DNA of 61,401 nt from a virus (IMGVR_UViG_3300030047_000019:1-61401); one strand, 5' to 3'. Counted from the stretch's first letter, positions 12,043 to 61,401 are shown. Translations and numbers: made by a program. Notes: generated by a model from the letters alone, not told the origin.

Positions 12043-12230
12043 CTACTGTGCAGCTTCAAAAGTCAGGTAGTATTCTTTACCCGGGATGAAGTAATTACTT
12101 GCAGGAAGCTCGGCATCAATATTGATATCCAAATTACCGCATGGAGTTGCTTTTGCAAAGTCTGCATTTTCACCAGTCTGGCTATAAACTGCCGACATCT
12201 TTGCTTGTTTTTGGCCTCCGAAATCTGTTA
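12043..12230 (-). pseudogene. 3' remnant of a small phage gene (ENADFAKATPCG...GKEYYLTF) joined to the truncated methylase
   Basis: ORF-track start lies inside the MTase in another frame; apparent deletion junction near 12230. Confidence 0.45.
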
Positions 12231-12728
12231 TGGTCCCCAGCTCATGAATTCTCTGACGTTCTCGATCCACACGTAATCAGGCTGAAGTTCATCTATATAC
12301 ATAAACAGAGCATGTGCCAGGGTTCGGCTGTCTGCATCGCGGGGTAACCCTCCTTTAGCTTTCGAGTAATTCGTACACTCCAGGCTGGCCCACAGGTTAA
12401 TCTTACACCCGGGAAATTCCGATCGCAATTTATTGACCAGCTCCCTCAATGCTTCAACAACCTTGAAATCCCTTACATCTTCTACAAAATGCATGCAGTT
12501 CGGGTGATTAAGCCAGTGACTCATCAGGGCATTGTAATCATGATTGATACAAGCCACCACCTTTACATTTTCCAATCCTGCCAGGTGGATCCCCGTGGTA
12601 GTTCCTCCAGCTCCTGCAAACAAATCGATCCAGAAGATCATGCAGCCTTTAGTTTCATCATAACCCGTCCTAAGATGCAGCATCAACGGACCAATCTGTA
12701 TTTTTTCGAGTAAGTATTGTGGTTTCAT
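12228..12728 (-). pseudogene. Truncated C5-cytosine DNA methyltransferase
   Basis: Motif I DLFAGAGG, motif IV-like SLECT, motif VI ENV, then stop; TRD and motifs VIII-X missing. Confidence 0.75.
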
Positions 12729-12994
12729 GGCTTCCTTAGTTTATATACAATCATTTTTTTATAGCAGTTAATTCCGAAATGTACATCAATATCAACCATC
12801 AGATCCATCAGATCCAGATCCCTGGTAACCTTGCATATACGGTCAGGTTCTTTAATCAGAAATATGCATCCTTCACAAACCGATTTTACCTTCACAATCT
12901 TAAATGCATCAGGCTTTAAACTTATTATATCTGCAAATGTCATAGTTCCCTCCTTAATCACCTTAAAGTCCTTAAACTCCTTAATCTGTGCCAT
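12725..12994 (-). CDS. Hypothetical protein (CxxC)
   Basis: Coupled to the MTase start; N-terminus encoded by a CCTTAA 9-mer repeat. Confidence 0.5.
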   Translation of the reverse strand: MAQIKEFKDFKVIKEGTMTFADIISLKPDAFKIVKVKSVCEGCIFLIKEPDRICKVTRDLDLMDLMVDIDVHFGINCYKKMIVYKLRKP

Positions 12995-13019
12995 AATTTC
13001 TAAATTTTAGGTTAAACTT

Positions 13020-13135
13020 AATTTCGCAATCTCACCCATTGAGCCGTGGCGGATTCTGTCAAGGGTGGCCGTTTCAATTACCCCATTTGTCCCTTGACTT
13101 TTCCGGCAGGCGATCAATAACTTTATTGCGTAATT
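13020..13135. promoter_or_regulatory. Frpo-like long hairpin (putative ssDNA promoter), copy E
   Basis: Nested inverted repeats gcaat/attgc, attga/tcaat, cgga/tccg, gtcaaggg/cccttgac; TTGA-N20-TAACTTTA on the 3' arm. Confidence 0.55.
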
Positions 13136-13177
13136 GAGTTTTTAACTTTCTCATATTCAAATTCTGTCAATCAATTG

Positions 13178-14535: not shown

Positions 14536-14616
14536 GCATAGGTGAGAGCTGACATTCGTATTCGTGTTATCGTAGTTGTAATTCGAATTCGAAAAACTGA
14601 ACCTGGAAGACAGAAC
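14536..14616 (-). ncRNA. DGR template repeat (TR)
   Basis: 81 bp, AAY-codon rich, 22 adenines on the minus strand; differs from four VRs only at those adenines. Confidence 0.95.
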
Positions 14617-14648
14617 TAGCAGCAACGCAGCGTACAACCTTTTTTATT

Positions 14649-15056
14649 TTATTCCGGATAGAGGAAGTATTCCTGGTATTCCGCTTGGAACTTTTCGGCT
14701 ATATACATGGCCTTTTCACTTGTATCAGTGCAAAGGCGAGAGCCGACAGTCGTATGCGTGTCAGCGTAGTAGCAAATCGAATCCGAAAAACCGAACCCGG
14801 AAGACAGAACCCTATACCAGGGATAGTATTTCCATTGCGAAGGTTTGCTCCAATCTGGACGCCATCCGTTGTTAATTGCCTTGAAAATAATCAAGAGCTT
14901 ATAGGCGTTGATGATTGGTTTTCTGAACTCTTCCGGGAGCATCGATACATCGGGCAATGCAGTTGTATCAATGTTTTCCTTCGTGCAGGCATCTTCAAAC
15001 GATTTGATTGTTCTGAAATCAAATACAGGTTGGTTTTTTACTGATTTTTTGGCCAT
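14649..15056 (-). CDS. DGR target protein 1 (135 aa)
   Basis: C-terminal VR1; IKSFEDAC...GWRPDW...KYYPW...VGSRLC family. Confidence 0.9.
   Translation of the reverse strand: MAKKSVKNQPVFDFRTIKSFEDACTKENIDTTALPDVSMLPEEFRKPIINAYKLLIIFKAINNGWRPDWSKPSQWKYYPWYRVLSSGFGFSDSICYYADTHTTVGSRLCTDTSEKAMYIAEKFQAEYQEYFLYPE
14730..14810 (-). repeat. DGR variable repeat VR1
   Basis: 13 mismatches to TR, all at TR adenines. Confidence 0.95.
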
Positions 15057-15061
15057 GATTT

Positions 15062-15571
15062 TTATTGTTTAATGGTTAGAAATTGTTCGTATATATCAAT
15101 GAATTGCTTGGCAGCATAAGTGCATTTTTCCTTAGTTTCAAAGCAAAGGCGAGAGCCGACAGTCGTACTCGCGTTACCGAAGTCGTAAACCGAATCCGAA
15201 AAACCGAACCCGGAAGACAGATTGAAATATGGCCAGTATTTGTATTGATTGGAATTACTCCAATCTGGAGTCCAGCCCTGGTTAATTGCTTTTACAACAA
15301 TTTTTGCCTTTTCATAATTGATGGTATCAGCATCAAGTCCGAGGCTGGCGAAGCGTTCATTGAACTCTTCTTCAGTAGTTCCGCATTCTTCGCAGGCATC
15401 TGCAAAAGTTTTGATGTCTGTGTAGTCTCTTTTTTTGAAGTAATTTTCTCCAAAGGTTTCGATCAATACTTTCTGAAACCACACTGGTGATTCCGGAAAA
15501 AGCTTTTTTGCTGTTGTTTTTTTAAGAGTTAATTCCATCATTTTTAAATGTGTTAAACTGTTAATATTCAA
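15062..15571 (-). CDS. DGR target protein 2 (paralog; start may be 15541)
   Basis: Same domain family, C-terminal VR2. Confidence 0.9.
   Translation of the reverse strand: MNINSLTHLKMMELTLKKTTAKKLFPESPVWFQKVLIETFGENYFKKRDYTDIKTFADACEECGTTEEEFNERFASLGLDADTINYEKAKIVVKAINQGWTPDWSNSNQYKYWPYFNLSSGFGFSDSVYDFGNASTTVGSRLCFETKEKCTYAAKQFIDIYEQFLTIKQ
15143..15221 (-). repeat. DGR variable repeat VR2
   Basis: 14 mismatches to TR over 79 bp, all at TR adenines. Confidence 0.95.
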
Positions 15572-20787: not shown

Positions 20788-20843
20788 TTTGGTTCATCTT
20801 AATCTCCTTAAACTCCTTAATGACCTTAATCTCCTTACCCTCT

Positions 20844-21428
20844 TTACAATTTACCTTCGTTATATTCAGCTATTACCGTTCTCAATTCAAATGAGTAATT
20901 GCTGTATGCCGTCTCCGGATCATGATACTGAAGCGGATAATCGCTTCCCTTGAAAAAGCAGTTAAATTCAATCTCCTGGGCTTTCAGATCGTACTTCTTC
21001 ACCAATTTCAGCAAGCTTACACGCAGTCCGTACACTTCGAAAATAACCTTAATGATCCGGTCTTCCACCTCGCAATAAAAAGGCAGGTGCACCTTAAGCG
21101 GTTTAATCATATCACCCACATACGCCTCTGCAGCATCATGCAATAGCGCGGCCAGTTCAATGCCTGGAGACACGTACACATTATTCTTTTTCATCAGGTA
21201 ACGTACCAGCATACTGTGTTCAGCCACCGAGAAAAACCGTGGCGACATGCCCGAAAAATGAGGCTTATACGCCAATCCTTTGGCGATATCCATCAGATCC
21301 ACCATATCTGCAGTTGGCTCCAGCAGATTAAACTTCTTACCCGAAATAGTATTGATACAGCCATCCAGCTGCCTTAGCGGAATCAACTCTTCCTTAATTG
21401 CGATTTCTTTTTCCATTAAACTTTTCAT
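20844..21428 (-). CDS. HD-domain phosphohydrolase (YfbR/YfdR-like)
   Basis: SVAEHS, ALLHDAAEAYVGD. Confidence 0.85.
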   Translation of the reverse strand: MKSLMEKEIAIKEELIPLRQLDGCINTISGKKFNLLEPTADMVDLMDIAKGLAYKPHFSGMSPRFFSVAEHSMLVRYLMKKNNVYVSPGIELAALLHDAAEAYVGDMIKPLKVHLPFYCEVEDRIIKVIFEVYGLRVSLLKLVKKYDLKAQEIEFNCFFKGSDYPLQYHDPETAYSNYSFELRTVIAEYNEGKL

Positions 21429-25222: not shown

Positions 25223-25295
25223 TAGCGAGGATGGGATTCGAACCCATGGCCTCAGGGTTATGAACCCTGCGAGCTGCCAACTGCTCTACCTCGCA
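25223..25295 (-). tRNA. tRNA-Met(CAT), initiator-like
   Basis: Cloverleaf: GCGAGG/CCTCGC acceptor with 1:72 mismatch, CAGGG-TTCATAA-CCCTG anticodon arm with three G-C pairs, GGTTCGAATCC T-arm; CCA not encoded. Confidence 0.9.
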
Positions 25296-27748: not shown

Positions 27749-29008
27749 ATGAAACGACAGAAATTGTTCAGGGCGCCGCGCCTGTTTGATCAGGGCGGTG
27801 ACCTTACAAAACCCTGGTGGATCGAACTGGGGTATCGGGATCCTCGCGACGGCATGATGAAGCGTAAGCGATATCAGGATGGTTTTGCCCAGTTGCGGAC
27901 AAAAAAAGACCGGTATAAGTTTGCAGAAGAATTGATCAACAACCTCACTGCAAAACTTCTTAAAGGTTGGAACCCTACCGACGATTCATCGGTACAGGTA
28001 GTATATGTCGATGATCTGGAGTATCACCAGGCAGCTCAGGTATACGGCCGCAAACGGAAAGCAAATAAAAACGTCCGGTTCTACGCATCAGAATATGTCA
28101 CTCTTCAGAAAAGCATCAAAGCAAAAAAGACTTATGAGAGTTACCGCGGAAAGCTGCGCGAATTCGTCTCCTGGCTTGAACGGGAAAAATTAATCGATAA
28201 TGATCTTACCACCTACAACCATGATTTAATACTGCGATTTTTCGATTACCTGATCATTGATCGAAAATTAGCTGGACCAACGATTGAAAAATACAAATTA
28301 ACGCTCGATGGATTCTGGGCTTACCTCATTGATCGCAAAGCAATAAACGAAAGTCCGGTTGGTAAAATTCAATTGCCCGAAACAGGCGAAGACTTTTCAG
28401 CTATTCCTTTTCTCGACGAAGATCTTCAGCAAATACTTCCCATCATCAGATCCGAAGATCCCCAGCTATTCATGGGAGCGATGATTCAGTACTTTTGTTT
28501 TGTTCGCCCTGGTGACGAGCTACTCAAGTTAAAACTAAACCAGGTAAACTTATCGGCTCGAACAATCCATATCCCAAAAAATGTAGCAAAAAAGAGGAAA
28601 GAACGGACCGTTGATATCCCCGAACAGATGTATAAGATTTTGGTCGATCAGGGAATACAATGCTATGGCAAGGATATGTACCTGATAGGTCCGTTTGGCC
28701 GACCTGGTAACCGACCAATAGGTTATAACACTTTGCGGGGCCGCTTCAATAAATACCGTGACCGGTTGGGATTAACTGATCTTTATAAATGGTATTCATT
28801 CAAGCATACTGGCGCCGGAAAATTACTGGAGAGCGGTGCGACAATTATCGAGATCATGAACCAGCTGGGACATACTGATATCGCCTCCACCTATCGATAC
28901 ATCCGCCGTCACTTTGGCGATCGTTCGGAGCATGTCCGTACTAAGTTCCCCGATCCTCCTGGTTTCGGTTTTAATGAGGTACCGGAGTCAATTGAATTCT
29001 TTATTTAA
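27749..29008 (+). CDS. int: Tyrosine integrase
   Basis: R (VRPGDEL), K, KHTG, LGH and Y (TYRY) catalytic residues; 419 aa. Confidence 0.95.
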   Translation: MKRQKLFRAPRLFDQGGDLTKPWWIELGYRDPRDGMMKRKRYQDGFAQLRTKKDRYKFAEELINNLTAKLLKGWNPTDDSSVQVVYVDDLEYHQAAQVYGRKRKANKNVRFYASEYVTLQKSIKAKKTYESYRGKLREFVSWLEREKLIDNDLTTYNHDLILRFFDYLIIDRKLAGPTIEKYKLTLDGFWAYLIDRKAINESPVGKIQLPETGEDFSAIPFLDEDLQQILPIIRSEDPQLFMGAMIQYFCFVRPGDELLKLKLNQVNLSARTIHIPKNVAKKRKERTVDIPEQMYKILVDQGIQCYGKDMYLIGPFGRPGNRPIGYNTLRGRFNKYRDRLGLTDLYKWYSFKHTGAGKLLESGATIIEIMNQLGHTDIASTYRYIRRHFGDRSEHVRTKFPDPPGFGFNEVPESIEFFI

Positions 29009-29201
29009 ATCGAAGCTTTTTTAAGCCTCCCCTTGAGGGGGAGGTTTGGTGGGGGCTAAAAAAACCCCCGGACAACGCGTGACCGGGGGAAACCAATAAT
29101 CTATAAAAAAAAGAGAAAATCCTAACCTTCAGTATCAACCCTGATATTAACCGGATTATGGCTGATTTCATTAAATATTGAATTGCCTTAAAGTCCTTAT
29201 T

Positions 29202-33631: not shown

Positions 33632-33753
33632 AAAAAAAAGCGACCTCCGCCGCTCTCTTTCTTTAAGCCCTCCCTTGTGCGGAGGGTTTGGGTGGGGCTT
33701 CTTTTTTTAAGCCTCCCCCCACGGGGGAGATTTAGAGGGGGCTGTTGGGCTGT

Positions 33754-53827: not shown

Positions 53828-53924
53828 GGCAAAATATTTTAAGTTTATCCTTAAACTCCTTAATGTCCTTAATGTCTTTTTAAAGCCCTCCACCTGTGGG
53901 GAGGCTTTGGGTGGGGCTTTTTTT

Positions 53925-55292
53925 TTAACTCAGTACCTTCGTCGTTCCAGCTCCCGTATCCAGCGTTGTCAATACCGTATTTCTGAATCTCCATTCAACC
54001 GTTTCGTCACCTCCGTTATACCGGTGCACGATTTCAATCGGGTCAAGTATTCCCTGCCTGTCCAGCCAGGCATTGGCCACATTCACCAGGTAAGCCTCCC
54101 TGATGTTCGATCCTCCCTGGTTTCCTGCATATGTACCACCGGGCATTCCGGCGCCCATCACGTTTGGATTCACCATGATGGCAAACATGATCTCCGAGTT
54201 GGCAGCTCCAGAAGTGATTAGGTTTTGCTGATTATCCAGTTTATTATCGAGGGGAGCAATGATCCACTGCTCTTCAGCCTTCCCGTTTTGTGGATTGATC
54301 TCGAAAAAAGTAAATATCGGCTTGTCTGCATTGTCGGTGCCGCAAAGATTATCTTCGATAGAGTCCATGTAATCTTCAATGGCTCTCTGTCGTAACGACA
54401 GGTTTTCGAAATCATTTTTGGGAAACTTACGGTCCCAGAACGAATAGGGAATTTGGATGTGCCATTTCCAGGTAATCTGGTTGGAATAAGCCTTTTTAAG
54501 AAAAGCAGGGACCATCCCGGCAATATCCACCCATCCGGCCAGATAAGCGGCATACCAAAGCGGTGACGAATAATATTCATTGTTGCTCCATGAATCACGG
54601 ATGCACATAATGAATGTTTTGCCCTTGGTCTGATTTCCAAATTTCCGGCGCTGCAGGTCTGCCATCGGATCATATTCATCGAGCACATCAATCGTTTGAT
54701 AAATTCCCGAAACGGGAATATTTGGCCATCTGCCCGAAACAACGCACTTTTCAATAACTCCCTGGTCATTGGCAGCGGTCAACCGGCAATATTTGGCATT
54801 AATCGTATTCATTCCCACAATCTGCGAACCATCGGCGTTCATCATAAATTGAACGAAAGCAATGCCATACTTCAGGTAATCGCGCATGGCTTTCTCCATA
54901 TAGCGGCGAACCATGCGACTATTGGCAAAAACAGGAAGGTTTTTATCATTCGGAGCGGCAAGTGTTTCATTGCCATTGGGGTCATAACCGGTCACAATGC
55001 AAGGATAAATACCCTGTCCAAGCGTAAAATTGCGGGTAAAACGCAACCCCGTATTCAGCACTCCCACCTTGCTGATGATGGCATCCGCGGTAGTCGGCCA
55101 TAAATTATCAGATCCCCAGCTGGCTAACGTGACACCATCAAGCCAGGTTCGGTCCAGATCCACCCCTGCCGGTTTTGGCGATGCAGTAGTTTTAGGCCTG
55201 ATTGGATCCGGAGCTCCTTTTGTAACACCCATATACGACTTACCTGAAATCATCAACGGGTCACCTGCCTTATTCCAAAGTATATCTGCCAT
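53925..55292 (-). CDS. Portal protein (putative)
   Basis: WG.DN..P, YYS.P.W and GSNIREA motifs; 455 aa. Confidence 0.7.
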   Translation of the reverse strand: MADILWNKAGDPLMISGKSYMGVTKGAPDPIRPKTTASPKPAGVDLDRTWLDGVTLASWGSDNLWPTTADAIISKVGVLNTGLRFTRNFTLGQGIYPCIVTGYDPNGNETLAAPNDKNLPVFANSRMVRRYMEKAMRDYLKYGIAFVQFMMNADGSQIVGMNTINAKYCRLTAANDQGVIEKCVVSGRWPNIPVSGIYQTIDVLDEYDPMADLQRRKFGNQTKGKTFIMCIRDSWSNNEYYSSPLWYAAYLAGWVDIAGMVPAFLKKAYSNQITWKWHIQIPYSFWDRKFPKNDFENLSLRQRAIEDYMDSIEDNLCGTDNADKPIFTFFEINPQNGKAEEQWIIAPLDNKLDNQQNLITSGAANSEIMFAIMVNPNVMGAGMPGGTYAGNQGGSNIREAYLVNVANAWLDRQGILDPIEIVHRYNGGDETVEWRFRNTVLTTLDTGAGTTKVLS

Positions 55293-55319: not shown

Positions 55320-56276
55320 TTACCGTCTTTGCGAAATACTGCCTGTCCCGATCCCTCTGGAAAATAATCTATTATTCATAACGTCTTCCCGAACTTGTTT
55401 CGGAACCACTTCTTCAACGTTTTTTTCTTGAAAACTCTTTGATTCCATAATCCTATCCAGACTATTTTTATTATATTCAGAATAAAGGAATAATTTCTGG
55501 TATTCAACTTTAAACTGTTCTGCTATATATGCAATCTTCTCTTCAGAATCAGTGCAAAGGCGAGAGCCGACAGCCGTAAGCGTGCCATCGTAGTCGTAAT
55601 CCGAAGCCGAAAAACCGAACCCGGAAGACAGAACCTCAAACCAGGGATAGTACTTATTTTGTTCAGAATTACTCCAATCCGGTCGCCATCCATTGTTGAT
55701 GGCCTTATAGATAATCAGCAGTTTGTAATATGCAATGATTGGCTTTCTGAATTGTGTAGGGATCAACCTGACATGATGCAAAAAAGTTGGAAAAATATTT
55801 TCCTTAATACGGGCATCCTCGAAGGTTTTGATTGTCCTGAAATCAAATGCAGGATTGGTTTCTGTTGATTCTGTACTTATCTCTTCCGAATATAGGAGAA
55901 AATCCTGGTATTCAATTTGGAACTGTTCGGCTATATATATGGCCTTTTCGCCTGTATCAGTGCAAAGGCGAGAGCCGACAAACGTAGACGTGAAATCGTA
56001 GTAGTAATGCGAATACGAAAAACCGAACCCGGAAGACAGAACCTCAAACCAGGGATAGTACTTATTTTGTTCATAATTACTCCAATCCGGTCGCCATCCA
56101 TTGTTGATGGCCTTATAGATGACCAGTAGTTTGTAATAAGCAAAGATTGGCTTTCTGAATTCCGCCGGGATCCACCTAAGGTAATGCAGAAAAGTCGGAA
56201 AAATATTTTCCTTACTACAGGCATCATCAAAGGTTTTGATTGTCCTGAAATCAAATGTAGGGTTGATTGTGGTCAT
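55320..56276 (-). CDS. Remote DGR target protein 3: tandem duplication of the target domain with two VRs
   Basis: Two copies of FDFRTIKTF...VGSRLCTD; contains VR3 and VR4. Confidence 0.92.
   Translation of the reverse strand: MTTINPTFDFRTIKTFDDACSKENIFPTFLHYLRWIPAEFRKPIFAYYKLLVIYKAINNGWRPDWSNYEQNKYYPWFEVLSSGFGFSYSHYYYDFTSTFVGSRLCTDTGEKAIYIAEQFQIEYQDFLLYSEEISTESTETNPAFDFRTIKTFEDARIKENIFPTFLHHVRLIPTQFRKPIIAYYKLLIIYKAINNGWRPDWSNSEQNKYYPWFEVLSSGFGFSASDYDYDGTLTAVGSRLCTDSEEKIAYIAEQFKVEYQKLFLYSEYNKNSLDRIMESKSFQEKNVEEVVPKQVREDVMNNRLFSRGIGTGSISQRR
55554..55634 (-). repeat. DGR variable repeat VR3
   Basis: 15 mismatches to TR, all at TR adenines. Confidence 0.95.
55962..56042 (-). repeat. DGR variable repeat VR4
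   Basis: 14 mismatches to TR, all at TR adenines. Confidence 0.95.
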
Positions 56277-56415
56277 GATTTTATTTTTAATGGTTAAAAA
56301 TTATTTTATTTATTGAATATTCATTTTTCGTCATTGCGAGGTACGAAGCAATCTGTTACTCTATGCTTCTTTAAGTCTCCCCCTTCCGGGGGAGATTTAG
56401 AGGGGGCTTTGGCTT

Positions 56416-56858: not shown

Positions 56859-57623
56859 TTAAAACAAGGTAAGCTGCTTTACTCCCGTCAACAATTCATC
56901 CAGCAAATCCTCCTTAAACTCCTTAATGACCTTAAAGTCCTTTTCCTCCTTTAAACTTTCAACTTCCTTCAGCACAATCTCACTTTCCTCTTCCCCAATC
57001 GCCACAATGTATGGTCCCAATCCGCTTGGATGAATCTGTACCCTCCATGCCCCGTAAAATTGGTTAGAAAGAGAGTTCATCCATGCCACTTCTCCCAACA
57101 TTCCATTAAGACACATATTAATCACGCACATCATAGCACAATTCCTGTCCACATCCGCTCCATAAAACAATGCATTCCTGTTCACCCTGGCCGCTGCCAT
57201 CAATATCCGTCCCGATCCGCATGCACAATCCATCACCCTCGGTGCGCAGCCAACTTGAAACTTTGAACTTTGAACTTGAAACTCTTCTTGTGTCATCCTT
57301 GCCATCAGATCGCAAATCGGTTCCGGTGTAAAAAACTGCCCGTTATGTCCAAAACTGACAAACTCCATGAAGAATTCTCCAAACACATCATGTAAACCTT
57401 CGCCGTGGTCATCCATCTCCATCACCAGGGCGCCAAACGCTTCAGCTATCAGGTAAGCTTCCGGTTTATCGTATCGCCTCACTATTTCAAGATACCGGTC
57501 TTCCATCGCTCCCAGGCTAAGGGCGCACACTGTCATTTCTAAAAAATCACTGAATACATTCGAAATGCTGTTCCTACGCGCCAACTGCTGCATGTACTGG
57601 GCAAAGCTTTTCTGTTTTTCCAT
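56859..57623 (-). CDS. N-6 DNA methylase-like (HsdM N-half) protein lacking the NPP(Y/F) motif
   Basis: GQFFTP and DCACGSG present; no motif IV. Confidence 0.75.
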   Translation of the reverse strand: MEKQKSFAQYMQQLARRNSISNVFSDFLEMTVCALSLGAMEDRYLEIVRRYDKPEAYLIAEAFGALVMEMDDHGEGLHDVFGEFFMEFVSFGHNGQFFTPEPICDLMARMTQEEFQVQSSKFQVGCAPRVMDCACGSGRILMAAARVNRNALFYGADVDRNCAMMCVINMCLNGMLGEVAWMNSLSNQFYGAWRVQIHPSGLGPYIVAIGEEESEIVLKEVESLKEEKDFKVIKEFKEDLLDELLTGVKQLTLF

Positions 57624-57714
57624 AGTCGTAATGATTAAAAAAAAAGGCCCCGCATCCCTGCAAAGCCTTTCTTTTTTAAGCCTCCCCTCTCGGGGGAGGT
57701 TTGGAGGGGGCTGT

Positions 57715-58188
57715 TTACATTTTCCCTTCATCCGCAAACGAATAATAACTCTCCGAAGTCAGAATCAAATGATCCAGTACCGGTATATCCAGAACCTTAC
57801 CCGCTTCCTGAATCTTCTTTGTCAAATCTTTATCCGCTTCACTGGGTTCCAGGTTTCCCGATGGGTGGCAGTGACTTAGAATTATACTTGCTGAATTTGA
57901 TTTTAAAGCCGTTTGCATAATCATTCGCACATCAGCAATCGTTCCAGTGAGCCCTCCAACCGAAATCTGGCAGTAACCCAGCACTCTGTTATTTCGGTTC
58001 AGACAAAGAATGTAGAAGAATTCCCGGTAATCCAAACTGGGAAAAACACCCTTCAGGCAATCGTAAGCTTCCCATGATGTAACCACCTTTGGCAGTTCCG
58101 AAGCTTTTAACTTTGGTTTATAACTGATTTCGATTTCTGCCAAAGTAGAATTAAACATTGGCACCGGAGTAAATAAATTAGTTTGCAT
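57715..58188 (-). CDS. radC: RadC-like JAB domain protein
   Basis: REFFYILCLNRNN, HCHPSGNLEPSEAD, LDHLIL. Confidence 0.92.
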   Translation of the reverse strand: MQTNLFTPVPMFNSTLAEIEISYKPKLKASELPKVVTSWEAYDCLKGVFPSLDYREFFYILCLNRNNRVLGYCQISVGGLTGTIADVRMIMQTALKSNSASIILSHCHPSGNLEPSEADKDLTKKIQEAGKVLDIPVLDHLILTSESYYSFADEGKM

Positions 58189-58236
58189 TCTATGTCACCA
58201 CTGCCCTGTGGATTTATGTAGGCTGGCTCTCCTGTT

Positions 58237-58397
58237 AATTTTGAGCCATCACCAATTGAGCAGACCGGATTCTAGTCAAGGGCGAATGTCAGTTTCGAAG
58301 AAAGTGACCAAGCGCGAAGCGTGGCTTCCATAAGGGACCAGGAAAGAAGCCACCCTTTACTTTTCCGGCCGGCGATCAATAACTTTGCTCCAAAATT
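58237..58397. promoter_or_regulatory. Frpo-like long hairpin, copy A
   Basis: aattttgagc/gctccaaaatt, attga/tcaat, ccgga/tccgg stems; TTTA-N20-TAACTTTG on the 3' arm. Confidence 0.6.
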
Positions 58398-58490
58398 GAG
58401 TGAGAGTAATCCCCTTCCACCATAAGTCAAGCCCGATTCAAGGCATAAAAAAAGAGGCCTTAGCCTCTTGGAGTTAAAATATCAGCAGCA

Positions 58491-58661
58491 TCAACTTGCG
58501 ATGCTGCTTACAAACTGGTTATATTCAAAGCTGATCAGTTCCTGATCGAGTAATTCAGATGCTCCTTCGAAGTAAATGGAGTCGAGGTACTGGGTGAAGG
58601 CTTCCCAAAGGTTTTGGCGGGTTTCCTGATCTTCTTTTTTGGTCAATCTGTAAGTTTTCAT
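58491..58661 (-). CDS. Small acidic protein (not in ORF track)
   Basis: Hand translation MKTYRLTKKEDQ...YLDSIYFEGASELLDQELISFEYNQFVSSIAS, 56 aa; terminator-like hairpins on both sides. Confidence 0.6.
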   Translation of the reverse strand: MKTYRLTKKEDQETRQNLWEAFTQYLDSIYFEGASELLDQELISFEYNQFVSSIAS

Positions 58662-58714
58662 ACGATAGTTTTTAAAGGTTTTTAAAGCCCCCGGTTTCCC
58701 GGGGGCAATTTCTT

Positions 58715-59020
58715 TTAGAAAGGAAGATCATCTTCAGCAGGCTCTTTCTTCGATTTCTTTTTTGAAGATTTTTGAGCTTTCTTCTGTTCTTCAGGGCCAT
58801 AAGGCTGTTCGCTCTGTTCTTTGGTCTGGTAGTAACAAGTGTGGGTACGGTTGAATTTGTCGGGGCTTTTCATTTTAGCCACTTCAAACGAGAGGTAGGT
58901 GATTCCGTTCTTTTCGAACGTTGCCTTTAGGGCGTCTTCCATTGGGATTACTACTTTCACGATGTCGAGATCGTTTACCTGAGTTCCTTTACCGATGTAA
59001 TGTTTTTCAAAAGTTGTCAT
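58715..59020 (-). CDS. Small protein with SSB-like acidic C-terminal tail (DDLPF)
   Basis: YIGKG..., ends in EDDLPF. Confidence 0.6.
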   Translation of the reverse strand: MTTFEKHYIGKGTQVNDLDIVKVVIPMEDALKATFEKNGITYLSFEVAKMKSPDKFNRTHTCYYQTKEQSEQPYGPEEQKKAQKSSKKKSKKEPAEDDLPF

Positions 59021-59558
59021 AACTGAAAAGTTTAAGTTAAAAAATGATATGCAGGTAATCGGCTACTTGAACCGGAGCCGGCAAAGAGGAACTGGAATAC
59101 CGGTAAGCAGCGCTTGTCCTGAACTTGTTTCAGGAAGGATATGCCGGGAAAATCCTTGACGGGTTCCACTTCTCCGAGGGCAAGGAAGCCACCTTAGCAG
59201 ATTATTTGGCAAACTAAACCAGGCATGATCCACTTGAACATTACACCGATATGGGATAGGAAGGTGATATCGACAGCCGGGAGTAATCGCCGGATGACAG
59301 CCTGGCATATTCGAAACTGGAATAAACCTATAGGTTGATCGGGACTGAAAAACATGACGAACGTACTCATGCCATTCACCAGACCAAAGATCGAATTGCC
59401 ACCATGAGCCCAAAGAAAGTTGACGGCAAAAAGGAAGAAAGGCCGGAAGGTGATCTATCAAAAATAATTGCTCCGGAAATTGGGGGATAAAGAAAAAACG
59501 GGGAGTATGGAGCTTCTGAGTCAACGAACAAAAAAAGGGGCGTTAGCCCCTCTCTTTG

Positions 59559-59933
59559 TCAAAGATTGATCAGTTCTTCAACATCTCTTACCTTGCCATC
59601 CAGTGTCCTCTTCATTTCGTCGATCACTGAGGTAATCACTGCCGAGTTTGAAGTTTTGAATTCATTCCCGTTGGCATCCCTCAGACTGATCACTGAACTC
59701 AGCGAATCGGCCCCGATCTGGAAGGTCTGCAACTTCCTTCTCGAATCGTTCAGTGTCTTCCACCGGTCAATCAGCATCGACAAATCTTCCACCCGCTGGA
59801 TCCGTTCCTCCAGACTCAGCTTGCGAGGTTCTTCAACTACGTCCTTAACCACCGTTAGAACTGGAGCAACTTCAACAACTTCAACAACTTCAGCAACTAC
59901 TGCTGTTTTTTCGGCAACATTTGTTTTACCCAT
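59559..59933 (-). CDS. Hypothetical coiled-coil protein
   Basis: 124 aa, preceded by the conserved leader motif. Confidence 0.6.
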   Translation of the reverse strand: MGKTNVAEKTAVVAEVVEVVEVAPVLTVVKDVVEEPRKLSLEERIQRVEDLSMLIDRWKTLNDSRRKLQTFQIGADSLSSVISLRDANGNEFKTSNSAVITSVIDEMKRTLDGKVRDVEELINL

Positions 59934-59984
59934 AACATTATGCCGCTGCCCTGCGGACTTATTTTGGCATCTGGCTCAGCCGGT

Positions 59985-60163
59985 TAAATTTAAATTACGG
60001 GAAATCACCATTGAGCCGGACGGATTCTAGTCAAGGGCGAATGTCAGTTTCGAAGAAAGTGACCAAGTGCGAAGCATGGAATGGAATAGGTTATTCTGTA
60101 TTTCAATCCCCATTCCACCCTTTACTTTTCCGGACGGCGATCAATACCTTTGCCCGGAATTTG
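59985..60163. promoter_or_regulatory. Frpo-like long hairpin, copy B
   Basis: Close to copy A in sequence; TTTA-N20-TACCTTTG on the 3' arm. Confidence 0.6.
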
Positions 60164-60244
60164 AGTGTAACAAGCAATTCTCTGTCAACTTCGTAAAGCC
60201 TTACCATTTGTAGCGACCAAAAAAAGGGGCGCAAGCCCCTCACA

Positions 60245-60388
60245 TTACAATCCCGGATCAGCATCTGAATACGATTCATCACCATGTCCGGTACCACCGA
60301 AATCTTCATCCTATCCACATACGTCAAAATGCTCATTGTAGGAGTCACACATCGAGCAATCACCATCTGGTCTGATACAATATGCCAT
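60245..60388 (-). pseudogene. Cys-rich/acidic mini-ORF interrupted by in-frame TAG
   Basis: MAYCIRPDGDCSMCDSYNEHFDVCG*DEDFGGTGHGDESYSDADPGL; conserved leader upstream, terminator downstream. Confidence 0.5.
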
Positions 60389-60443
60389 AGTTACTTTGCC
60401 GCTGCCCTGCGGGCTTATTTTGGCATCTGGCACGCCCGGTTAA

Positions 60444-60929
60444 TTACTGAATAAAATTTCCCTGATTTGCATACTTCGATTCAACCTTCTCTGATCCCCA
60501 GGTATCCCGCATTTCATCCATCGATTGAATCTTGCCGTTTTTCTTCTTGTATTCACCTTTGTGCCAGTACCAGGCAGCTTTAGGATGTGAGAACCAGAAT
60601 CCTTCAGACTTCAATGTTTCACGGACCGCAAACGTGTTACCGGTGATCCATATCCATGAACCAATCATCTCAATTTCGATTCCGGGAATGAAGATTATGC
60701 GGTCAAGCCTTTGTTTGATTTCTTCTGAAACCTGTTGCTCATATTCCTTCCTTGCTTCCGTAAAATCAGTATTCGAGTTGATAAGCCTTTTCGAAAGCCT
60801 TTCATACTGATCATTAATAACCTGCATTGTTGCAGTGTCGCCGCCTTTATCCGGATGATACAGAAATGCAAGGCGTCGGTACTCCTTGCGTAACTCATCC
60901 AATGTCTTAACACCTTCGAAAAATTTCAT
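60444..60929 (-). CDS. J-domain (HPD) protein
   Basis: LRKEYRRLAFLYHPDKGGD...MQVIN; C-terminal GSWIWITGNT domain. Confidence 0.8.
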   Translation of the reverse strand: MKFFEGVKTLDELRKEYRRLAFLYHPDKGGDTATMQVINDQYERLSKRLINSNTDFTEARKEYEQQVSEEIKQRLDRIIFIPGIEIEMIGSWIWITGNTFAVRETLKSEGFWFSHPKAAWYWHKGEYKKKNGKIQSMDEMRDTWGSEKVESKYANQGNFIQ

Positions 60930-60976
60930 TGAGTTCACCGCTGCCCTGCGGATTTATGTAGGCTGGCTCTCCTGTT

Positions 60977-61093
60977 AATTTTGAGCCAACCACCCATTGA
61001 ACAGACCGGATTCTAGTCAAGGGTAGTTCCGGTAATCAAGGTCAAAACCCCTTGACTTTTCCGGGATGCGATCAATAACTTCGCGGCAAAATT
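60977..61093. promoter_or_regulatory. Frpo-like long hairpin, copy D
   Basis: agtcaaggg/cccttgact, ccgga/tccgg, attga/tcaat; TTGA-N20-TAACTTCG on the 3' arm. Confidence 0.6.
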
Positions 61094-61401
61094 GTAGGAG
61101 AGATAATACCACTCTGTCCTCTGGGCGATCCATCGGCAGTCTCTTTTGGTTCTTTTCTCTGATGCCTTGCCTGCAAATTCAGAGAAAAGAACTGCGCAAA
61201 ATTTTTAGGAGCATAGCTGGTCCCTGAAAATTCATGAGTTTGCAAAACGAATGGCGCAAGGTTCTTTTTGGTCGCTTTTTCTTACAAGAAAAAGCGTAGA
61301 GGACAATTCGCCCTTATAAAGTTCATTTTCTCATAAATTGCTGTAATTTATGCCATTCCGACAATAAAAACGCTCAAACGTTTTTATTTAACAAGGGACT
61401 G

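Follow-up and report, generated by a model that had tools for sequence, protein, structure and literature searches.

Four imperfect hairpins in the IMG/VR virus record IMGVR_UViG_3300030047_000019 are probably (about 0.6) promoters that depend on single-stranded DNA (ssDNA), similar to the Frpo promoters of the F plasmid and used by the primary sigma factor of Bacteroidota. The window analyzed was the entire record of 61,401 bp, which is classed as linear with a CheckV completeness estimate of 100%, and nearly all of its long open reading frames (ORFs) lie on the minus strand. Each hairpin element (c1 to c4, Table 1) adjoins the start of a minus-strand gene on the right of that gene. The elements belong to a family that appears to be previously undescribed, and it would be an analogue of Frpo rather than a homologue, because no sequence similarity was found. 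The family, its structure, the strand that folds, the conservation of the boxes, the cargo and the contexts were supported directly by the comparison of copies.

Detection and extent of the element family

The repeat finder gave two four-copy families in the window, with starts at 13033, 58250, 60005 and 60991 (D19) and at 13088, 58350, 60115 and 61046 (D16), which are the two arms of one element. The 3'-arm pattern (20 specified bases, at most 3 mismatches) had four forward and no reverse matches on the record, and a backwards control pattern had none. Furthermore, nhmmer with family profiles found exactly four 5' arms and four 3' arms in the record, all on the plus strand. These arms match the starts of the hairpins that an earlier sequence-only reading had placed at 58237, 59985, 60977 and 13020, and the hairpins, about 123–188 nt long, were thus confirmed. 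For c2, the minimum-energy fold of the DNA was the consensus structure (z −3.0).

Three pattern scans located the element in 16, 33 and 31 IMG/VR stretches, and another scan gave at least 120 stretches in GTDB genomes. In phage contigs of IMG/VR and genomes of Bacteroidota, the 3'-arm pattern yielded at least 189 distinct copies, and 167 of these were aligned at full length. Nearly all labels were Bacteroidota (Prolixibacteraceae, Sunxiuqinia, Draconibacterium, Mariniphaga, Maribellus, Lentimicrobiaceae and Odoribacter), and copies were present in two cultured Sunxiuqinia species. Five of the 40 distinct matches to a 5'-arm pattern were set aside as chance matches in coding sequence with no 3' arm. 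Outside genome G001, the exact pattern, which diverged relatives escape, was absent from all 400 genomes sampled from its phylum and present in 5 of 60 from its family. In four metagenome DNA runs (Logan contigs), unitigs broke at the elements, with 3–6-fold depth spikes at the conserved parts. No match to c3 was obtained by blastn among the INPHARED cultured phages, nor (word 11, E up to 0.01) among the 72,556 plasmid records of PLSDB, where Frpo itself was not used as query. Rfam cmscan of the whole window at gathering thresholds returned only a tRNA, and cmscan of 57600–61401 at E up to 10 returned nothing credible, neither the radC nor the STAXI motif.

In the 167-copy alignment, the plus strand reads, from 5' to 3', CAT (the start codon), 8–10 nt, a small hairpin (H0), an unpaired conserved leader block and the 5' strand of an AT-rich outer stem. 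It continues with a loop of about 7–8 nt, the 5' arm ATTGAGC..CGGA..GTCAAGGG and an insert of 10–165 nt, followed by the 3' arm CCCTTKAC..TCCG..GC-GA-TCAAT, an unpaired AnnTTTG and the 3' strand of the outer stem. H0 has 4–5 bp and the loop TGCCCT, and in 131 of 143 copies it stood 8–10 nt from the ATG. The leader block TTATTTTGGCATCTGGC.CGCC was strongly conserved and had no pairing partner. The insert of the long form contained three further hairpins (P2 to P4), and in one of them, P3, each base of the core C-GAA-G was present in at least 80% of copies. For triloops of the GNA type with a closing C:G pair, unusual stability in DNA has been described (PMC13037366, PMC3201870).

Conservation of the fold and of the folding strand

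Covariation was counted over 45 pairs in 146 sequences, with 500 shuffles and with slid-partner controls. The paired cells amounted to 89.4% in the observed alignment, 82.3% in the shuffled alignments and 32–47% with slid partners. Double-change cells numbered 432 as against 119.5 in shuffles, where none of 500 was as high, and 50–124 with slid partners; the copies are interrelated, so the shuffle tests overstate the significance, whereas the slid controls and the variety of pair types are independent of kinship. The covariation score was 0.191 as observed, 0.081 after shuffling and at most 0.067 with slid partners. For instance, one pair was CG in 95, TA in 39 and AT in 25 copies, and another AT in 66, GC in 41 and CG in 32. 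Fold and covariation analysis had been named as a check in the sequence-only reading, and the hairpin structure is indeed kept by covariation.

At the five pairs left free by the search pattern, G:T exceeded A.C by 141 to 6, and over all 45 pairs the proportions were 3.5% for G:T and 0.8–1.4% for A.C. Folding energies also favored the plus strand, which was the more stable one in 139 of 166 copies under RNA parameters and in 135 under DNA parameters (Wilcoxon p about 1e-19). Because of this asymmetry and these energies, the main hairpin is selected on the strand antisense to the genes, and a structure of the mRNA 5' untranslated region or an RNase III site was ruled out for it. The 62 phage-context copies paired like the others (Watson–Crick 85.9% versus 85.6%; G:T 3.5% versus A.C 0.8%). 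H0 alone showed the opposite strand trend (A.C 20 versus G:T 6). Given this trend and an orphan copy in the window at 60395–60436 that stands without a promoter hairpin, H0 and the leader are probably a separate module at the mRNA level.

Promoter boxes on the 3' arm

The consensus of Bacteroides promoters has been described as TAnnTTTG at −7 and TTTG at −33 (PMC7366714). At the positions of the −7 box that were free of the search pattern, the counts were T162, T164, T131 and G154 (n = 167). TAnnTTTG was exact in 121 of the 167 copies, and 24 more had TTCG; TTTG was present in 38 of 62 phage-context copies versus 83 of 105 others. The −33-like part read TTGA in 85 and TTTA in 82 copies, and the spacer measured 20 nt in 133 and 21 nt in 30. 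In the window, TTTA or TTGA sits 20 nt 5' of each −7-like box, which is exact in c1 and c2 and has one mismatch in c3 and in c4. The Bacteroidota-type −7 box that had been reported on the plus-strand 3' arms of the window was borne out by its conservation in the family.

The inner stem closes with the T of the −7 box, which pairs with the first A of the 5' arm (AT in 146 and GT in 14 copies), and the next A is unpaired. The end of the inner stem thus coincides with the T|A step of the box, at a conserved internal loop. The conservation of the unpaired −7 bases points to sequence-specific recognition. In the sigma-70-type open complex, the duplex ends and the flipped-out non-template bases begin at the equivalent step, so the T|A junction seems to resemble the duplex edge of an open complex.

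A sigma-A-type −7 box is conserved on the 3' arm and nowhere else. On the gene strand, exact TAnnTTTG occurred within about 420 nt in 10 of 167 copies, at no constant position, and the 5' arm, read as its reverse complement, shows the −33-like part but no −7 box. Moreover, on the plus strand outside the 3' arm, exact −7 boxes reached at most 8 of 167 copies in any 20-nt bin. A leftward promoter would exist only in the folded form, because the gene strand and the 5' arm lack a −7 box. By a strict rule, an upstream terminator-like site was found on the gene strand in at least 40 of 159 copies and on the other strand in 10, which suggests that many cassettes are separate transcription units.

Genes downstream of the elements

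The 137 downstream ORFs of at least 60 aa were clustered, and 136 of them were scanned with Pfam. Eleven clusters were obtained. The commonest was the family of the c2 gene, which has no assigned function (38 ORFs), followed by RadC (30 ORFs, 28 by Pfam), ArdC with ArdcN and zincin domains (26), DUF6573 (15), DnaJ-domain (13), YspA/DprA-like (6) and SymE (4) proteins and four small clusters of 2, 1, 1 and 1 ORFs. Methylase-like genes and a 101-aa protein with the C-terminus DDLPF come next in many loci. Judged by these families, the cargo consists of typical establishment and anti-restriction genes, and this gene set has been described in plasmid leading regions (PMC11541004).

The sequence-only reading had claimed the geometry of Frpo, and this was recovered in the family: the fold lies on the template strand of the adjacent genes, the sole conserved −7 box is on the 3' arm, and the cargo is of the establishment type. 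Among the genes it had listed, the J-domain, RadC/JAB and methylase-like ones stood, but the gene with the tail of SSB (the protein that binds single-stranded DNA), at 58715–59020, is not directly behind such a hairpin and has its own leader.

Proposed mode of action

A single-stranded plus strand would fold back on itself. The inner stem P1 would make the −33 box and the spacer double-stranded and would end at the T of TAnnTTTG, so that the remaining −7 box would be unpaired in an internal loop of about 7–8 nt, like the non-template strand of an open complex. The leader and the 3' flank would pair into an AT-rich outer stem that mimics the downstream duplex. RNA polymerase would then read leftward, with the plus strand as template, into the adjoining gene. 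The predicted mRNA 5' ends are near 58239–58242, 59995–59998 and 60979–60982, and the predicted leader has 50–65 nt, with H0 8–10 nt ahead of the ATG. In the duplex state there would be no leftward promoter, since the 5' arm is without a −7 box. Recognition by the polymerase, the start sites and a single-stranded stage in the phage are all predictions from the sequence.

The cassette consists of the hairpin, the leader, an anti-restriction or establishment gene and often a terminator, and it is common to integrative and conjugative elements (ICEs) and a group of temperate tailed phages. The trigger in ICEs would be the transferred strand as it comes in. In the phages, the cassettes are kept in an island that the probable terminase and the portal gene enclose. 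It is conceivable, although we put it forward only tentatively, that a group of temperate tailed phages of Bacteroidota uses host-sigma hairpin promoters, active only in single-stranded or extruded DNA, for the expression of anti-defence islands.

Occurrence in ICEs and prophages

The same element and cargo families were found in Bacteroidota ICEs with relaxase, TraG, TraM and TraN. For instance, on one contig (G005:C3), elements preceded DUF6573, ArdC with a methylase, and the c2-gene family, and they adjoined relaxase, TraG P-loop, TraM, DUF4138 and T4SS-DNA_transf genes. In five genomes, the element-linked genes were co-directional with the TraG or relaxase genes in 8 of the 9 clusters sharing a contig with them. 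The copies lay 6–55 kb from TraG or relaxase, and the cyclic order was cassettes, type IV secretion system (T4SS), relaxase. In the F plasmid the order is the same, and the origin of transfer (oriT) separates the leading genes from the tra operon. The transferred strand (T-strand) of F has been described as the template of the leading genes (PMC9849209). By this analogy, the ICE arrangement is consistent with template-strand transfer.

On the 7.2-Mb chromosome of genome G003, the pattern matched 13 times, with 12 of the matches falling into four clusters, but neither relaxase nor TraG gave a match. The four clusters are prophages collinear with the window, in both orientations. Their islands lie between a homologue of ORF 218–1936 and the portal-like gene and contain ArdC, methylase, the DDLPF protein, DUF6573 and the c2-gene family. 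The window record likewise has neither a relaxase nor a coupling protein, in agreement with the sequence-only reading, which had seen no relaxase.

Other parts of that reading fared differently. A captured ICE leading region, which it had considered, is supported in so far as the element and cargo families also occur in Bacteroidota ICEs. Of the links of the hairpins to Bacteroidota ICEs and plasmids that it had proposed to look for, that to ICEs was found, but c3 was without a match in PLSDB. An oriT at 61100–61401 or 1–217 was not upheld. The ends of the window are an assembly break within the upstream intergenic region of the island, and locus L045 and the four prophages are continuous across 61401 to 1. 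In addition, the nick polarity would put the oriT on the other side: with the plus strand as the transferred template, the nick would lie left of the cluster, at lower coordinates, because transfer runs 5' to 3' (PMC9849209). The prophages of G003, without relaxase or TraG, also speak against it. A physical genome end near c3, where end-resection would expose the plus strand, was dropped as a candidate because of the same continuity in L045 and the four prophages.

Weight of the evidence and alternative explanations

Several points weigh against an ssDNA-dependent promoter. The main weakness is that the sequence gives no route to a single-stranded plus strand in the phage, and that the 3' arm as a duplex is a good rightward promoter which should fire; rightward antisense transcription is therefore expected and is perhaps the real output. 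We know of no stage of a tailed double-stranded DNA (dsDNA) phage with one strand exposed over kilobases. The type-A leaders have exact TAATTTTG on the plus strand in the 5' strand of the outer stem (c1 58236–58243, c3 60976–60983), which could drive plus-strand RNA or be a by-product of the AT-rich stem. No RNA run was listed as containing the window stretch, and the start sites are predicted ones. As for conjugation, neither oriT nor nick site was located in the ICEs studied, and a short relaxase gene in G005:C3 is divergent and directly beside the first element. If the oriT of this relaxase were used and the relaxase entered last, it is the sense strand that would be transferred, and the model would be broken. 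A 2026 preprint describes ICE leading regions as not assignable by the plasmid rule (10.64898/2026.01.13.699239). Moreover, since G003 has four prophages but no relaxase or TraG, conjugation is not the trigger there.

The window alone adds to these difficulties. The z-scores of its DNA folds were modest (−1.5 to −4.2), and the minimum-energy fold of c3 had the outer stem and lacked the inner one. TAnnTTTG was not enriched (44 sites versus 56 expected), and the two-box promoter pattern was not above chance (4 versus 2.9 expected). The case for the elements rests on the family comparison and is weak from the window alone. In the family, besides the kinship of the copies, the −33 part matches the consensus at three of four bases and was itself fixed by the search pattern, and the patterns fixed at least 20 bases of the 3' arm, so that conservation there is partly due to selection of the copies.

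A control region of duplex DNA is an unlikely alternative in which the repeated upstream module would be the target of an element-encoded repressor, with zygotic induction as in p576 or as proposed for pKM101, or a cruciform extruded by supercoiling, and transcription of the genes would start from a non-canonical or alternative-sigma promoter within the conserved leader. In phage N4, duplex DNA extrudes hairpins that serve as early promoters. Such a region would work in a dsDNA phage with no single-stranded stage, and it would account for the strong conservation of the unpaired TTATTTTGGCATCTGGC.CGCC block; repeated regions before establishment genes have been described as repressor targets (PMC6294495). 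However, the covariation and the excess of G:T over A.C indicate selection on pairing within one strand, which a protein operator does not need, the inserts of 10–165 nt between the arms make a dimer-binding site unlikely, and the gene strand has no canonical promoter. Action of the structure as plus-strand RNA, a cis-antisense or non-coding RNA of about 200–300 nt over the 5' leader of the gene, seems rather unlikely. The RNA would come from a plus-strand promoter left of the hairpin or from read-on from the rightward promoter of a neighboring element, and the clustered elements, 1–3 kb apart, each have such a duplex promoter. The fold is on the plus strand, where RNA and DNA are indistinguishable by sequence, and the exact TAATTTTG of the type-A outer stems would also suit this explanation. 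Nevertheless, it does not explain why the −7 box is unpaired and near-invariant or why the helix ends at the T|A step. The plus-strand bins beyond the 3' arm are poor in exact −7 boxes, as given above, no plus-strand terminator follows the element, the C-GAA-G loop is favored in DNA and not in RNA, and Rfam gave no match.

An ssDNA signal with another main job is quite improbable. It could prime the complementary strand, like sso/ssi or the M13 minus origin, or serve in cassette recombination like attC, and the three inner hairpins of the long form and the clear shuffling of cassettes between ICEs and phages fit such roles. Frpo itself was first identified as a priming signal, and ssDNA promoters may yield primers (PMC12672017). 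Against this, there are 3–4 copies per island, each at a constant spacing to the start codon and with the conserved leader, and this fixed link to start codons points to gene expression. The attC core order is RYYYAAC...GTTRRRY, and the stem base of the element, GTTA...TAAC, is the reverse of it; an integron integrase was not searched for. Finally, a selfish inverted-repeat element, resembling a miniature inverted-repeat transposable element and without function for its carrier, would be multicopy with inverted-repeat arms and a variable middle, and would show the depth spikes seen in the metagenome runs. We regard it as most improbable, as orientation and spacing to start codons are constant, few gene families are linked, the copies are not identical, their changes are compensatory and one strand is favored. 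The ssDNA-dependent promoter therefore remains our preferred explanation.

Comparison with known systems

The element resembles Frpo1 and Frpo2 of F and ssi1-3 of ColIb-P9 in that a long imperfect stem-loop on the template strand rebuilds an upstream promoter box, with several copies per region before anti-defence or establishment genes. Frpo has been reported to rebuild both boxes, and class 1 promoters to be inactive as duplex (PMC9849209, PMC11541004, PMC12672017). In silico, the stem-loop on the template strand and the rebuilding of two boxes were both found in the present family. Homology to Frpo by the published threshold (BLAST e <1e-6, PMC11541004) was not found with c3 against the 72,556 plasmid records. 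The family also differs in having Bacteroidota −33/−7 boxes instead of −35/−10 boxes, a −7 box in a built-in unpaired loop, a branched long form, no similarity of c3 to any PLSDB plasmid, and an occurrence in tailed phages as well as ICEs.

Hairpin promoters recognized without homology also precede methylase and KlcA operons and were validated by 5' RACE (PMC12672017). They are, however, enterobacterial with sigma-70 boxes. In IncF and IncI plasmids, ssDNA promoters are established, among them new classes found without homology (PMC12672017), and experimental proof has been given in enterobacterial plasmids only (PMC9849209, PMC12672017). No report of ssDNA promoters in Bacteroidota or tailed phages was found in the literature searched, with the supplementary Frpo candidates of PMC11541004 outside the search; the main text of that paper has no word beginning with "Bacteroid". 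The surprising part is the phage setting.

Host RNA polymerase also reads ssDNA hairpins that mimic promoters at the minus-strand origin of filamentous phages and at ssoA of rolling-circle plasmids. Those origins differ from the element in giving a short primer and not an mRNA, in being one per replicon and in having no link to start codons. In the tailed phage N4, the early promoters are also hairpins, which SSB helps to extrude from the duplex, but they are tiny (stems of 5–7 bp), lack host sigma boxes and are used by a virion RNA polymerase. STAXI (RF01728) and radC (RF01754) are likewise conserved structures beside ssb, anti-restriction, integrase or radC genes, and STAXI was considered by its authors as possibly acting as ssDNA (PMC2864571). 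These motifs are proteobacterial or enterobacterial, have another architecture and no described promoter boxes, and gave no cmscan match at E up to 10. In p576 (Reg576) and pKM101 (ArdK/ArdR), a repeated conserved module also precedes each establishment gene (PMC6294495), but there it consists of duplex operators with ordinary promoters, whereas the present family is selected for single-strand pairing.

The family provides a non-proteobacterial case with hundreds of covarying copies and another sigma factor, and the cultured Sunxiuqinia make experiments possible. Its upkeep in phages, including those of a host genome with no conjugation genes, suggests that "entry sensor" cassettes move between ICEs and phages, and it raises the question of when a dsDNA phage shows single-stranded DNA to the host polymerase. 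The element can be used as a sequence tag for anti-defence islands in Bacteroidota mobile elements. If the proposal is true, a single-stranded or cruciform state would matter functionally in these dsDNA phages, whether upon entry, following an attack by nucleases or in replication, and ICEs and phages would share one pool of cassettes made of an ssDNA promoter and an anti-defence gene. The element would then be a two-way switch: the hairpin would read leftward into the gene, and the duplex 3' arm would read rightward, antisense to the neighbor, with the island off.

The island and other features of the window

The coordinates of the elements and of the genes beside them are given in Table 1.

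Table 1. Hairpin elements and associated genes in the 61,401-bp window
Feature	Position	Strand	Evidence or remark
Element c1, long form	58195–58408	+	repeat finder, pattern, nhmmer, family alignment
c1 H0 and leader	58195–58232	+	
c1 outer-stem 5' strand	CTCTC 58227–58231; AATTTTG 58237–58243	+	
c1 5' arm	58235–58283	+	nhmmer
c1 insert	58284–58352	+	sub-hairpins
c1 3' arm	58353–58405	+	nhmmer
c1 −33-like TTTA	58356–58359	+	
c1 −7 box TAACTTTG	58380–58387	+	
Element c2, long form	59935–60175	+	repeat finder, pattern, nhmmer
c2 H0 and leader	59939–59977	+	
c2 5' arm	59983–60038	+	nhmmer
c2 insert	60039–60116	+	sub-hairpins P2, P3 (CGAAG mini-hairpin), P4
c2 3' arm	60117–60170	+	nhmmer
c2 −7 box TACCTTTG	60145–60152	+	
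Element c3, short form without P2–P4	60931–61106	+	repeat finder, pattern, nhmmer, fold
c3 H0 and leader	60934–60972	+	
c3 5' arm	60975–61024	+	nhmmer
c3 3' arm	61048–61097	+	nhmmer
c3 −7-like box TAACTTCG	61076–61083	+	
Element c4, short form without H0	13003–13146	+	repeat finder, fold, pattern, nhmmer
c4 5' arm	13011–13066	+	nhmmer
c4 3' arm	13090–13136	+	nhmmer
c4 −7-like box TAACTTTA	13118–13125	+	
Orphan H0 and leader, no promoter hairpin	60395–60436	+	nhmmer E 9e-11; precedes ORF 60103–60366(−)
RadC-like JAB protein behind c1	57715–58188	−	PF04002 E 2e-38
N6 DNA-methylase-like protein, next after RadC	56859–57737	−	PF02384 E 2e-10
124-aa protein behind c2, no assigned function	59559–59933	−	phrog_19224; clustering
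DnaJ-domain protein behind c3	60444–60929	−	PF00226 E 7.5e-7; phrog_15863
Small ORF behind c4	12725–12994	−	overlaps start of C5-methylase-like ORF
C5-methylase-like ORF	12228–12728	−	matches profile positions 4–115 of 324 only
101-aa beta-rich protein	58715–59020	−	C-terminus DDLPF, SSB-tip-like tail
Probable large terminase, upstream bound of island	218–1936	−	inferred
Portal-like protein, downstream bound of island	53925–55292	−	phrog_11226 E 2e-5; synteny in prophages

ORF 218–1936 is probably the large terminase, as suggested by a G-R-G-x-G-K motif invariant in 18 homologues and by weak RNase-H-like/terminase-nuclease fold matches on a poor model (pLDDT 49.9); it had no Pfam, PHROG or PDB sequence match. 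The window showed the features of a tailed temperate phage, with matches to tape measure, head maturation protease, integrase and DnaB and a weak portal match. A tRNA gene (25223–25295, minus strand, 66.5 bits) lies 2.5 kb from the tyrosine integrase gene (27749–29008), the sole long gene on the plus strand, and this is probably the attachment region. The C5-methylase-like gene behind c4 may be truncated or split.

Homologues of the 101-aa protein ended in LPF, mostly as (D/E)-(D/E)-L-P-F, in 25 of the 31 listed, and two more ended in PF. Its N-terminal domain had no Pfam match, and its model (pLDDT 71) had no Foldseek match at E ≤0.001 (best VIA Z 3.1); the model neither demonstrates nor rules out an oligonucleotide-binding (OB) fold. 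The gene has its own, different conserved upstream module at about 59018–59200, with the inverted repeat TCAAGGA...CCGG / CCGG...TCCTTGA and with the 3'-arm pattern in none of 34 distinct copies. This module may be another class of the same type of device. Unitig depth in the metagenomes spiked at 58956–59109.

Further repeats were observed in the window. The D3 repeat, with 17 copies in 10740–57717 (for instance 29017–29062, 33659–33748 and 57672–57717), is GC-rich, intergenic and about 46 nt long with two nested or overlapping G/C hairpins, and it may be a terminator family of the phage. A roughly tenfold spike of metagenome unitig depth was seen at 57570–57723, around one D3 copy. The D2/D8 runs have a 9-nt period, CCTTAANNN on the plus strand and TTAAGGAGN on the gene strand, and occur at no fewer than 10 gene starts (for instance 12941–13007, 20795–20861, 53839–53895 and 56902–56958). 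The run behind c4 encodes the N-terminal KEFKDFKVIKE, and the runs represent either a common N-terminal peptide or stacked sites of the Shine–Dalgarno type. Between 14536–15301 and 55476–56278, the repeats D4, D6, D7, D10 and D14 are 66–85% identical and correspond to a duplicated protein domain family, phrog_11581 (ORFs 14649–15571 and 55320–56276). In addition, a piece of about 56 nt at 61253–61309 with a perfect 10-bp hairpin was 86–96% identical in five other loci, three of which carry a homologue of ORF 218–1936, and it could be a terminator or a packaging signal.

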